Shown here in pieces: positions 46,301 to 49,568 of a stretch of DNA of 64,000 nt. The stretch's first letter is position 1, and every line of letters begins with the position of its first letter. The notes under the pieces were generated by a model. The model was given only the letters and a program-made list of their open reading frames with translations. It did not search any database and was not told where the DNA came from. The stretch lies in the sequence record NC_070993.1; one strand, written 5' to 3'. Position numbers and translations under genes: made by a program. The stretch is from Escherichia phage vB_EcoP_IMEP8.

Positions 46301-46510
46301 TCAGTAGTAAACATTCCGAGATAGCATACAAGTACCTTCTGAGAATTCAATCCAACGATGTATGCTAACATGTTCAACTGTACCGACCAGAGCTTTCATA
46401 TTCTTTTTAGCAATACGAGCATCTTTACGGGTGTCAAATAATTTGATATTATCTTTACCTAGATGGTGTCCATCTTCCCAAACAATACGAATAGCCCACA
46501 TCTTTTTCAT
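46301..46510 (-). CDS. small protein, member 3 of tandem paralog triplet (69 aa)
   Basis: Shares ...TR..AR...K...V...SIH...S.G...VYY pattern with two upstream ORFs. Confidence 0.45.
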   Translation of the reverse strand: MKKMWAIRIVWEDGHHLGKDNIKLFDTRKDARIAKKNMKALVGTVEHVSIHRWIEFSEGTCMLSRNVYY

Positions 46511-46719
46511 CAGTAATGTACCTTTCCGCTGACATAAACACGACCAGAGGAATACTCTCTGGCCTTATGGATGCTGATACTATTGACCACGTCACCAGTA
46601 AGCATAGTCTTTTTAAAATCTCGAGCTTGTTGGCGAGTTGGTAGTGCAGTCATAGTCATACCACCTGATGCCCACTTAATCTTTGCTAACCAAAACTGTC
46701 TCATAGTGATTGGTCTCAT
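46510..46719 (-). CDS. small protein, member 2 of tandem paralog triplet (69 aa)
   Basis: Same conserved pattern, ends ...VHY; 1-nt start/stop overlaps with neighbours. Confidence 0.45.
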   Translation of the reverse strand: MRPITMRQFWLAKIKWASGGMTMTALPTRQQARDFKKTMLTGDVVNSISIHKAREYSSGRVYVSGKVHY

Positions 46720-46916
46720 TAATAATAAACCTTGCTGTTGGCAAAAAGAGCACCTTCGTTATTCACAATAGCTTTTCCTATTGTAACCTTGTTAAGTCTA
46801 AAAGTAGACTTGTATTGATTTTTGACCCTACGTGCGTGATCTCGAGTCTTAACAAAATCTACAGCTACCAAGTCTCCAGTCATGTTATCATGTACACGAA
46901 CAATCCACTTTTTCAT
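46719..46916 (-). CDS. small protein, member 1 of tandem paralog triplet (65 aa)
   Basis: Same conserved pattern, ends ...VYY. Confidence 0.45.
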   Translation of the reverse strand: MKKWIVRVHDNMTGDLVAVDFVKTRDHARRVKNQYKSTFRLNKVTIGKAIVNNEGALFANSKVYY

Positions 46917-47119: not shown

Positions 47120-47653
47120 TTACACACCTTTAGATGCAACTACACCTTCAGAGTTATTATAACGACCCTTCACTGCATAAGAATGTTCCCCTGCATGAGA
47201 GTGCTCAAACATCACCATCTGACCAACACGCATACCAGCACGAACTCGTAAGCTATGGTGCTTTGTTACGTTATGGAACTCAAATGTCAGCTTACTGCTG
47301 TTAAATCCAGCGTCTGCCCATCCAGCATGTAGGTGGTTCAAACCACAACGAGCCATGGACGAACGCAAAACAAACAGACTTGAGATGTTATCTGGAAGAT
47401 TAAACTCCTCCATAGAGTGAGCCAAGAAGAACTGACCCGGAGTAATAACCAAACCCTCTTCAGGAATTTTTACTTCCTTCCACTGAAGATTCTCTTTCGC
47501 ATCAATATCAACGATGCCATCAGCCTGTTCTTCAACAAGGATAGTATCACCAATACGGATATCCACACTAGCAGCGTTAACATACTTATGCTCCGCATCC
47601 AGATAGCCATTGTCAATTACATCGTGTAGTTCAACACTTCCTAGTAAACTCAT
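47120..47653 (-). CDS. dCTP deaminase / dUTPase-superfamily enzyme (177 aa)
   Basis: SVDIRIGDTILV and GQFFLAHS...SSMARCGL segments typical of the dCTP deaminase/dUTPase beta-jellyroll family. Confidence 0.65.
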   Translation of the reverse strand: MSLLGSVELHDVIDNGYLDAEHKYVNAASVDIRIGDTILVEEQADGIVDIDAKENLQWKEVKIPEEGLVITPGQFFLAHSMEEFNLPDNISSLFVLRSSMARCGLNHLHAGWADAGFNSSKLTFEFHNVTKHHSLRVRAGMRVGQMVMFEHSHAGEHSYAVKGRYNNSEGVVASKGV

Positions 47654-47662
47654 TCTTATTCC

Positions 47663-49012
47663 TTAGTTATTTGTTTCCATGTCAAAAGAAATTCCACGAC
47701 CCGCTTCATCGGCAAACCGAACTGTACGGGTTTGAGGCTGCAATACTTCAGGGTTATCAGCAACAAAACGATCAGCGAGACTGCGACTGACAGTCTCAGC
47801 TAATTCACCATGAGAAGGGATATCAAGATCACCAACAGTGGAACTCTGAGCAGAGGCTTCATCAGTCCATACAGCCCTAACAGGTGCGTTGAAACTCTGA
47901 CCAGAGAACTGGTGACGGTTAACAGTCAAACCATTTGATTGATCATTAGAACGTCTAGACAACCACCGCTCAAATGAATCGCTAGTAACACCAAGAGCTT
48001 CTTCAAAAGATGTTCTACGAGTAGAGCTTAGGTTTCGTGCCTCTTGTGCTCGACGTCTTGCAGGTACTGCAAACACCCCTTCAATTGCATTGTGTCGGTT
48101 AGGTTCATCTTCCCGACCAAGCAGATCACCACCTGTGTTAGTTGTTAAGTTTGTCAATCCTTCAGACCAATACGCATGAATCTGGCTAGAGCCGTGAAGA
48201 TTTGACATAACCTGAATCTCTTCATAAGGTATACCAAAGAATCGACTCATATCTCGGTTAACACAATACTGAGCACTTGTTGTATCTTCAAGAAGAGCAA
48301 CCTGACCTAGTTCGTTGACCAGATGACTAACCGATTGAGGTGTGGGAAGATATCGAGTTTGGGCCATGTATTGATGTGCAACTGCTGGAGAGGAAAATCT
48401 CAACACTTGCGAGTTAGGCCACTTCTTGTGAACGTATCTGATTTCACGACTAGAAACAACCACCGGGCAAGGGGCGGTCATCGCCAAGTATCCATGAGAA
48501 GTCATGAATAGGCTGTCAAGAGTCATCGCACCACGGCACATCATAGGGAAATTGTCCATTACTTCTTCAATAGAAGTAGGATAGTTAAACATGAATTGAA
48601 TTCGGGTTCCGTTCCACTGGAACTCAATAATATCAGTGAAAGTTAATTGGGAACCTTCGGCATAAGTCTCATTCGTAGCTTCAGCCAGAAGGGAAGCATA
48701 CTCGATACCTTGTGATTCAAGCCACTCTTTCACATTACTTTCAATTTCTCTTCCAAGATCTTGCCAACGATCAGTTGGGATGAAATAGTTTTGGGTTCTT
48801 GGTGCCTGTCCTCTGACAATAAAGATATCAATGTCATGTGGAGCTGTGTTATTAAGTACAGCATCACGAACAGCCCCACCAGTAATGATGGGACAAATAC
48901 CGTCTGGAATCAAGTTGTTGTCAATTAATTGTTCAATGAAGTGACGACCAACAGTGATATCAGGTTGTTGAGCAACCTTATCTTCAATTCGGTTAATCGG
49001 GATAACAATCAT
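47663..49012 (-). CDS. tRNA nucleotidyltransferase / poly(A) polymerase-family (Pol-beta-like) enzyme (about 449 aa)
   Basis: Head-domain signature ITGGAVRDAVL...HDIDIFI (GGxVRD...DxD); ATG at 49012 immediately after the upstream stop. Confidence 0.65.
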   Translation of the reverse strand: MIVIPINRIEDKVAQQPDITVGRHFIEQLIDNNLIPDGICPIITGGAVRDAVLNNTAPHDIDIFIVRGQAPRTQNYFIPTDRWQDLGREIESNVKEWLESQGIEYASLLAEATNETYAEGSQLTFTDIIEFQWNGTRIQFMFNYPTSIEEVMDNFPMMCRGAMTLDSLFMTSHGYLAMTAPCPVVVSSREIRYVHKKWPNSQVLRFSSPAVAHQYMAQTRYLPTPQSVSHLVNELGQVALLEDTTSAQYCVNRDMSRFFGIPYEEIQVMSNLHGSSQIHAYWSEGLTNLTTNTGGDLLGREDEPNRHNAIEGVFAVPARRRAQEARNLSSTRRTSFEEALGVTSDSFERWLSRRSNDQSNGLTVNRHQFSGQSFNAPVRAVWTDEASAQSSTVGDLDIPSHGELAETVSRSLADRFVADNPEVLQPQTRTVRFADEAGRGISFDMETNN

Positions 49013-49013
49013 T

Positions 49014-49568
49014 TTACATTTTCCAATATAATGAAGGTGGGTCGTAAGGGTCAAATCCTGTGAGTTCACACAAGAAAAGATAAACCTTAACAGTTAAGTT
49101 AACGTCCTGTTCACAGTAAGTAAACATATCTTCAGTGAAAGCATCCCATGCTTCCTCTTGCTCACCGTAATCTCCTTTAAGTTCCTCTAAGAACTCACCC
49201 CATTGCTTCAAACCATGACCTCTTGGGCCATGTCTAGGGTCGCCTTTCGGATACTCAGGACTATCACCAATACGGTCAGGTTTAAGATATCGACTAAGAC
49301 ACAGAGTGTCAAAGACGTTAAAATGATATTTAATCAAAGATGGATACATCTTCTTCAGAGCACAAAGGTCGAAGTCAATGATGTTATGACCCACGAGCAC
49401 ATCAGCTTCTGTAAGTTTACGAATCCCATCTTCAATTTGGTGAGGCCGATAGCCCCACCTTTCACCAGTTTCAACATCGAATATGTAAATACACCACACT
49501 TTAGTTATGTCATCGTACAGTGCATTACTCTCGATATCAAATGCAAACACTTTCTTTTTCTTTACCAC
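49014..49568 (-). CDS. stand-alone 3'-5' exonuclease (DnaQ/DEDD-like; 184 aa)
   Basis: Exo I-like FAFDIESN and downstream acidic motifs ([18 protein letters not shown]). Confidence 0.65.

Follow-up and report, generated by a model that had tools for sequence, protein, structure and literature searches.

The gene at positions 47663..49012 of the window, by which we mean the whole stretch of 64,000 nucleotides (nt) analysed from Escherichia phage vB_EcoP_IMEP8 (sequence record NC_070993.1), encodes a protein of the phiEco32 gp73 type. Judged from its sequence and its predicted structure, this protein is a nucleotidyltransferase (NTase) of the Pol-beta superfamily, and its nearest relatives in both respects are the class II tRNA NTases and poly(A) polymerases (PAPs). 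The same comparisons point to a class-II-like head that is flanked by lineage-specific elements and lies outside the family of CCA-adding enzymes and PAPs proper. Tailing of RNA 3′ ends is put forward here as a tentative function. Positions are those of the window, and all features described within the gene are located on the minus strand.

Relationship of the catalytic head to class II nucleotidyltransferases

The resemblance to the CCA-adding and poly(A) enzymes of class II resided in a Pol-beta-type catalytic head (aa 38-170; 48503..48901). Motif A of this head, ITGGAVRDAVLNNTAPHDIDIFI (aa 43-65; 48818..48886; read from the translation), comprises the GG-x-x-RD helix cap and the metal-binding residues D60 and D62. 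A preliminary description of this DNA had placed a GGxVRD...DxD head signature near the N-terminus of an open reading frame (ORF) of about 449 amino acids (aa), and GGAVRD...HDIDIF was indeed found at residues 45-64 of the 449 aa. For the stretch GGAVRDAVLNNTAPHDID (aa 45-62), alignments with CCA enzymes were obtained from phmmer, hmmsearch and hhalign. In a phmmer search of the PDB the CCA enzyme 6ibp was obtained at E 0.12, and the family profile reached E 0.002 with the same short motif-A stretch. Comparison by hhalign of the family profile with a class II reference alignment of seven sequences (E. coli Cca, PcnB and five phage CCA enzymes) gave a probability of 75% and E 2.5e-5 over 63 columns, which correspond to motif A. 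A hidden Markov model (HMM) search against PolyA_pol (PF01743), which the preliminary description had proposed as a check, yielded 18.8 bits and thus stayed below the gathering threshold of 23 bits. Four homologues scored 20.2-21.9 bits and likewise fell below this cut-off, and no model was matched in an NCBIfam scan of the NTase protein.

Two further class II motifs had no aligned counterpart in the phage family profile. One is motif B (RRDFTxNA), which serves ribose/nucleoside triphosphate (NTP) recognition and of which R90, R91, D92, T94 and N96 were invariant in the seven reference sequences; the corresponding stretch of the phage protein reads DNFPMMCRG, and only P156 is invariant in it. 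The other is motif D (EDxxR), the CTP/ATP-selecting template, with D131 and R134 invariant in the reference alignment; the phage family shows R[DE]xxYxx[KR]K instead. The earlier assignment to the tRNA NTase/PAP family therefore held for the superfamily and for the class-II-like head but not for membership proper, as the PolyA_pol score was below the cut-off and motifs B and D were unaligned.

Structural comparison gave a similar picture. About 145-165 residues superposed on class II structures. The clean superpositions comprised 143-151 residues (about 3.5 Å) and thus roughly the extent of the head domain. Matches ranking after class II were TENT5 and TUT4 (7.3-7.8), CdnE (7.3), Pol beta/X (6.6-6.9) and MenT1 (5.8-6.2). 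Neither neck, body nor tail of the class II enzymes was matched in the models or superpositions, and the remark in the preliminary description that the C-terminus does not resemble the usual tRNA-binding body was borne out. A canonical CCA-adding enzyme was rejected as a candidate, with motifs B and D, domain content and the Pfam and NCBIfam thresholds all against it. As far as can be read from the sequence, the protein does not belong among the CCA-adding enzymes, contrary to its label in several databases. The precomputed Pfam label carried by most homologues, PF26128.2, was not reproduced by a local Pfam-A scan even at E<=10.

Conservation was determined in 25 diverse family members, which are 22-35% identical to the window protein and alignable over residues 1-210 only. 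M1, G45, G46, R49, D50, D60, D62, F64, Y117, I128, Q139, P156, Y193 and K197 were invariant. The hG[GS] ... [DE]h[DE]h ... h[DE]h pattern of Pol-beta-like NTases, which belongs to a minimal alpha-beta-alpha-beta-alpha-beta core, was found in the protein. Its last element probably corresponds to the strand FTDIIEFQW (aa 125-133; 48614..48640; from the alignment and a predicted strand), in which D127, going by the superfamily pattern, is likely to be the third catalytic carboxylate. Position 127 was occupied by D in 16 and by E in 9 of the 25 sequences, next to the invariant I128, and E130 was variable. The catalytic carboxylates, whose absence on alignment would have spoken against the preliminary reading, were thus present, D60 and D62 being invariant and position 127 always acidic. 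Pairwise ratios of nonsynonymous to synonymous divergence (dN/dS) among five Kuravirus alleles were 0.06-0.12 for residues 1-210 and 0.10-0.39 for residues 211-285. Because the catalytic set is conserved and the dN/dS of the core is about 0.1, the protein is likely to be a catalytically active enzyme.

Flanking domains, tail and orthologues

The catalytic sheet is preceded by a family-specific N-terminal extension (aa 1-37; 48902..49012) consisting of a short strand and two helices, in which M1 is invariant and G22 nearly so. The head is followed by a folded helical C-terminal subdomain (aa 171-285; 48158..48502), for which no equivalent in the neck or body of class II enzymes was detected. 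The AlphaFold model of residues 1-290 had a mean predicted local distance difference test score (pLDDT) of 89.6 and a predicted template modelling score (pTM) of 0.86, and was confident over residues 1-285; residues 171-285 folded with a pLDDT of 80-94. This subdomain carries the family-specific helix motif R-[DE]-x-x-Y-x-x-[KR]-K-x-P (REIRYVHKKWP, aa 189-199; 48416..48448), recognized in the alignment and overlapping a helix predicted at 188-197. In addition to the invariant Y193 and K197, an acidic residue was present at position 190 in all 25 sequences, R189 in 20 and a basic residue at position 196 in 22. The motif is a candidate NTP- or substrate-binding element.

In the full-length AlphaFold model, disorder began at about residue 290 (pLDDT 30-55). 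On the evidence of pLDDT, indels and composition, aa 286-449 (47666..48157) were predicted to form a disordered, indel-rich tail, which is absent or unrelated in many family members. The preliminary description had reported an unusual C-terminus of 200 residues rich in Ser, Arg and Gln. The unstructured part comprises about 164 aa rather than 200 and is rich in Ser and Arg but not in Gln; the last 200 aa (47663-48262) contained 11% Ser, 10% Arg and no Lys, and 4.5% Gln compared with 6.4% in the N-terminal part. Many in-frame indels were observed in the tail among Kuravirus sequences, and family members range from 274 to 482 aa. The dN/dS of the tail in the five Kuravirus alleles, mostly 0.15-0.5, indicates that it is real coding sequence under relaxed constraint, in contrast to the strongly constrained core. 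No paralogues of the tail were found elsewhere in the window.

Two segments stand out within the tail. The Arg-rich segment PARRRAQEARNLSSTRRTSFEEA (aa 317-339; 47996..48064), evident from the sequence and modelled as a helix at 321-339 with low pLDDT, possibly makes non-specific contact with nucleic acid. The C-terminal peptide ADRFVADNPEVLQPQTRTVRFADEAGRGISF (aa 413-443; 47684..47776) was conserved in most Kuravirus sequences, with the pattern ADRFxxNNPEVLEPQ(TRTVRFADEAGRG) near the end of the tail. In an alignment of 13 Kuravirus sequences F416, N420-L424, P426, Q427, R429, T430, R432-A434, E436 and G438-G440 were invariant, and on this conservation the peptide is a candidate short linear interaction motif. 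In a subgroup that includes O18-011 and pEC-N1203-2Af.1, everything after ...EPQ was replaced by VGGELDQLLNSQNIR, together with a different downstream module of the dCTP deaminase gene (dcd) and HNH. The last 22 aa appear to be dispensable, since they are replaced in this Kuravirus subgroup. A frameshift of the window sequence was considered as the origin of the alternative C-terminus and rejected. O18-011 and others (locus L023, 1501-3895) have a different dcd and an extra downstream ORF; the ORF in the corresponding position of Bas89 is annotated as an HNH endonuclease. In the alignment, a Trp near the C-terminus recurred among distant family members, although their tails are unrelated in other respects.

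Synonymous divergence (dS) was lower in the 3′ half of the gene (47663-48157), at 0.04-0.46, than in the 5′ half, at 0.47-0.80; within the 3′ half, aa 356-415 reached 0.62 in one pair. An overlapping gene or an RNA element was rejected as the cause, as the ORF list held no alternative-frame ORF of at least 50 aa in 47663-48157 and an Rfam scan of the window gave no hit. The lower values are probably due to recombination mosaicism with a breakpoint inside the tail, an explanation made likelier by the alternative C-terminus travelling with the swapped dcd/HNH module.

The ORF list of the window gives 449 aa plus a stop codon for 47663..49012. The ATG at 49012 lies one base past the stop codon of the adjoining exonuclease gene (junction TAA-A-ATG) and was taken as the start because all homologues begin with MIVIP; an alternative GTG start at 49069 (468 aa) was rejected for the same reason and because it overlaps the exonuclease gene. 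Together, the ORF list, PHROG 12715 and tblastn identified the complete coding sequence as the orthologue of phiEco32 gp73 and of SU10 gp74, 'nucleotidyltransferase'. The match to PHROG 12715 ('nucleotidyltransferase') was end to end (aa 1-449 on a profile of 457 positions, E 7.8e-251), and full-length Kuravirus orthologues were 77-90% identical at the protein level in tblastn. A 3-kb segment around the gene matched 97 phage records, all but three of them named Escherichia or Shigella phage, with phages 172-1 and NJ01 as the best nucleotide matches (93% identical). Those matching records for which taxonomy was retrieved belong to the Gordonclarkvirinae, mostly Kuravirus. These matches identify the window, at the level of sequence, as DNA of a phiEco32-like, C3-morphotype podophage (Kuravirus) of E. 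coli. The gene is already annotated in GenBank, RefSeq and PHROGs and is discussed in PMC4281155 and PMC11990801, and its assignment to the superfamily is routine. SU10 gp74 has been found by mass spectrometry in SU10 lysate among the early gene products (PMC4281155). Literature searches revealed no biochemical or genetic study of the phiEco32 gp73 family.

Genomic neighbourhood and candidate functions

The preliminary description had located the gene between a dCTP deaminase and an exonuclease, and Pfam and PHROG matches confirmed both neighbours. The upstream gene (49014..49568, minus strand) encodes the 3′-5′ exonuclease subunit of a split family-A DNA polymerase (Pfam DNA_pol_A_exo1, E 3.8e-08; PHROG 38876/403, 'DNA polymerase exonuclease subunit'), and a primase/helicase is found further upstream in the window. 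The downstream gene, dcd (47120..47653, minus strand; Pfam DCD, E 3.5e-34; PHROG 1663), starts 9 nt past the NTase stop codon. The exonuclease is a separate protein of 184 aa; in phiEco32 (locus L001, 8442-8999 and 16991-18835), exonuclease gp74 is encoded about 8 kb from polymerase gp53, which 'lacks exonuclease domains'.

The order primase/helicase, exonuclease, NTase, dcd was kept in every relative examined, down to 25-30% identity; those with flanking DNA long enough were phiEco32, Bas89, ECBP2, O18-011, two IMG/VR contigs (82-88 kb) and two Logan contigs. Taken alone, the location of the NTase gene between the polymerase exonuclease subunit and dcd was seen in these four phages, in SU10, MN05 and 172-1 and in four metagenomic relatives. 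The NTase is encoded by phiEco32-like podophages, in 96 records of the phage collection and in metagenomic relatives. A HMMER scan with residues 1-265 against 1.84 billion representative proteins yielded 31 clusters of the family only, a profile search of 5.8 billion proteins gave 58 hits with nothing outside the phiEco32-like group, and an IMG/VR scan gave four NTase loci. By these searches the phiEco32 gp73 family appears as a small, lineage-restricted and architecturally distinct branch of class-II-like NTases. All members belong to one phage lineage with a fixed gene order, and synteny therefore counts as a single evolutionary observation and the context yields no independent clue.

Promoter and terminator signals around the NTase gene did not exceed chance. 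A site resembling those of sigma-70, TTGACC-18 nt-TATATT, with 10 of 12 matches, was observed at 49025-49054 (minus strand), inside the end of the exonuclease gene and about 13 nt before the NTase start. It may have arisen by chance, since the count of such sites in the region equals that expected from shuffled sequence. Three small ORFs (69, 69 and 65 aa) lie in tandem, back to back, at 46301-46916 (minus strand) and are mutual paralogues (the first pair being 34% identical in BLASTP, E 1e-9). They have a common TR..AR..K core and a V-[YH]-Y C-terminus, and their counterparts in phiEco32 are the 'hypothetical proteins' gp69-71. Directly upstream of the replication block, on the minus strand, were genes for a gamma-glutamylcyclotransferase-like protein (51572-51991) and for an ATP-grasp ligase (52693-53895); in phiEco32 (locus L001, 1-6438) the cluster goes on, as gp77-86, with a glutamine amidotransferase, an amidoligase and a COOH-NH2 ligase.

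The function that we favour, tentatively and with rather less than even confidence, is that of an active template-independent NTase which tails the 3′ ends of nucleic acid, most probably RNA, and which is PAP-like rather than CCA-specific. Such a protein would be a metal-dependent NTase of the Pol-beta superfamily that either derives from the class II CCA/poly(A) head or came to resemble it by convergence, and it would be devoid of the class II specificity and tRNA-measuring apparatus. Nucleoside monophosphates from NTPs would be transferred to a 3′-OH in the absence of a template; early in infection, the most probable acceptors would be transcripts of the host or of the phage, or short RNAs. 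The substrate might be contacted by the family-specific helical subdomain with its R[DE]xxYxx[KR]K motif and, in Kuravirus, additionally by the Arg-rich disordered tail, and the short conserved peptides of the tail may tether the NTase to a partner. Kinship with RNA-tailing enzymes is suggested by the only significant sequence links being those to motif A of PolyA_pol/CCA enzymes. PAP-like tailing is favoured because the enzymes closest to it in sequence and structure all act on RNA 3′ ends, because the Arg-rich, Lys-free tail of Kuravirus recalls the C-terminus of PAP I, and because related minimal phage enzymes can harm the host. Specificity for CCA is disfavoured since motifs B and D, neck, body and tail domains are lacking and the phage tRNA encodes its own CCA.

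Several observations weigh against RNA tailing. No biochemical data for any family member were found in the literature, and the preference for ribo- or deoxyribonucleoside triphosphates and for a particular base is not predictable from the sequence because motif B, for ribose recognition, and motif D, for base templating, are missing. The NTase gene is always part of a block of DNA replication and nucleotide metabolism genes, beside the polymerase exonuclease subunit and dcd, and structurally related small NTases of phiKMV-like phages are encoded between helicase and DNA ligase; both genomic contexts fit a DNA-linked role equally well. Furthermore, many family members have no Arg-rich tail, and the tail consequently cannot be the core substrate-binding device.

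A replisome-associated or DNA-modifying NTase would tail or cap the 3′ ends of DNA or primers, or would help, together with dCTP deaminase, to build a covalent DNA modification that contributes to the broad restriction resistance of the Gordonclarkvirinae. We regard this as unlikely, though less so than the other alternatives below. Support comes from the invariant order of primase/helicase, exonuclease, NTase and dcd, with the NTase start directly abutting the exonuclease stop, and from the structural relative LKD16 gp16, the gene of which lies between a helicase-like ATPase and a DNA ligase. In addition, the authors of the BASEL collection found the Gordonclarkvirinae to be remarkably resistant to restriction-modification (RM), with a known modification pathway lacking, and suggested dcd and the NTase as a route to modified DNA, e.g. 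DNA containing deoxyuridine (dU-DNA) (PMC11990801). Site counts over the whole window (1-64000), compared with expectations from first-order Markov simulations, spoke for both sides. EcoRV (33 sites, 15 expected) and EcoKI (10, 7 expected) were not avoided, and a shortage of sites is therefore not enough in itself to account for the resistance. The strong avoidance of CCWGG (3, 87 expected), GATC (131, 256 expected) and BamHI, PstI and SacI sites (0, 11-19 expected) argues against blanket protection of the DNA; GCGC was also depleted (37, 82 expected). Blanket modification of the phage genome was thus not indicated. Moreover, the conserved synteny is a single observation from one lineage with a frozen order, dcd, ThyX and thioredoxin are fully explained by the established pathway of dTTP supply for a genome of 42% GC, and ThyX argues against dU-DNA. 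DNA-specific Pol X enzymes scored structurally below the RNA-specific class II enzymes, and no reported DNA modification of these phages was found in the literature searched. A more specific form seems improbable, in which short motifs of the tail recruit a template-independent NTase to the replisome, where it would work on the 3′ ends of phage DNA or of primers, or nucleotidylate DNA, and so form part of what makes the group broadly RM-resistant. If true, a head domain of the class II type would here be put to a new use, and the strategy against restriction would be of a new kind as well.

The leading idea of the preliminary description, repair or maturation of tRNA 3′ ends (CCA-, CC- or A-adding) after damage by host nucleases, is doubtful at best. 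GGxVRD...DxD is a hallmark of class II tRNA NTases, but nothing aligns with motif B (RRD) or motif D (EDxxR), the elements that select CTP/ATP and ribose, a neck, body or tail domain for the tRNA elbow is lacking, and the Pfam and NCBIfam results given above are against it. The sole tRNA of phiEco32, tRNA-Arg(UCU), has a genome-encoded CCA and no tRNA genes were found in the 64-kb window, which makes a role in tRNA maturation unnecessary; moreover, E. coli has a Cca of its own. True phage CCA enzymes formed a distinct and easily detected family in 422 phage records and, among the matches listed, belonged to large phages (about 85-385 kb) and to no Kuravirus. A MenT/AbiEii-like takeover toxin, which would attach nucleotides to host tRNA acceptor ends, or to other essential RNAs, and so stop host translation or metabolism at an early stage of infection, is similarly improbable. 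It would agree with the early expression of the NTase gene and with the toxicity in E. coli of fHe-Kpn01 Gp22, a class-II-like phage NTase of 182 aa (PMC7291057), which indicates that minimal class-II-like enzymes can act on a host component; MenT enzymes act without a tRNA-measuring body (PMC10435456). The toxicity of an over-expressed distant relative is weak evidence; the hhalign comparison with another minimal phage NTase, LKD16 gp16, was limited to motif A. The structural match to MenT was much weaker than that to class II, a PADLOC scan of the NTase gave no hit, no toxin family was matched, no antitoxin-like partner was evident and the phage itself relies on the tRNAs of the host to translate its genes. 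MenT/AbiEii toxins and CD-NTases were neither matched by family HMMs nor the best structural match. Equally little is to be expected of an acceptor other than a polynucleotide, as in the nucleotidylylation of a protein or small molecule or the making or capping of a signalling nucleotide, e.g. in counter-defence. Since motifs B and D are lacking, various specificities are conceivable, but such enzyme classes scored lower than the RNA-tailing ones, GGxVRD is a motif found specifically in class II RNA enzymes, the neighbourhood gave no hint of a signalling pathway and a defence or anti-defence family was rejected, with no PADLOC or anti-defence family match. A catalytically dead scaffold with a structural or regulatory part in a replication complex is very improbable. 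The long disordered tail with its short conserved peptides suggests protein-protein interaction; however, three carboxylates and a GG-RD cap that are invariant throughout the family under strong purifying selection are not expected of a pseudo-enzyme.

The phiEco32-like (C3-morphotype) podophages are under development for therapy against pathogenic E. coli and have become tractable on K-12 through the BASEL collection. The NTase is among the few predicted enzymes of their replication block without an assigned substrate, and related head-only NTases, one of them toxic to E. coli, are spread across podophages of the T7 supergroup and are equally unstudied. Knowledge of the substrate would show what a class II head is capable of without specificity motifs and tRNA-binding domains, would test the published suggestion linking the NTase to the unexplained restriction resistance and might provide a terminal transferase of compact size that acts on RNA or DNA. 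Should the protein simply be a poly(A)-like tailing enzyme, this would be useful but not surprising.

Comparison with known systems

Foldseek searches of viral models (BFVD) revealed many small proteins (145-254 aa) annotated as 'Poly A polymerase head' or 'nucleotidyltransferase', with E values from 6e-08 to 1e-03. The named matches were mostly from phiKMV-like and other T7-type podophages (LKD16, LIMEzero, phiAS7, PP2 and Cd1, among others); LKD16 gp16 was matched at E 3.3e-05. In agreement with this, PHROG 1614 matched the window NTase at E 1.1e-07 over aa 34-155 only, and hhalign against LKD16 gp16 aligned 26 columns of motif A only, with a probability of 33%. The NTases of the PHROG 1614 type are likewise head-only, class-II-like and encoded in the DNA-replication modules of podophages. 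They differ in length, with 145-254 aa, whereas the window NTase has 449 aa with an extra helical subdomain and a tail, and they belong to another phage lineage with other immediate neighbours. Gp22 of fHe-Kpn01 probably belongs with these small phage NTases with a PolyA_pol head. The MenT/AbiEii (DUF1814) toxins have a different motif set from that of the window NTase.

The closest known counterparts are phiEco32 gp73, SU10 gp74 and PHROG 12715 of the Gordonclarkvirinae, which represent the same gene by the full-length HMM match and identical synteny. The differences from phiEco32 gp73 and SU10 gp74 are allelic only and consist of indels in the tail and the swap of the last 22 aa in one subgroup. 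With the class II enzymes (CCA-adding enzymes of bacteria and eukaryotes, A- and CC-adding enzymes and PcnB; PF01743), the window NTase shares motif A, GGxVRD...DxD, and like E. coli PAP I, in the alignment, it has an Arg-rich C-terminal tail. Unlike the class II enzymes, it has its own N-terminal extension, a helical subdomain with the R[DE]xxYxx[KR]K motif and a disordered tail.

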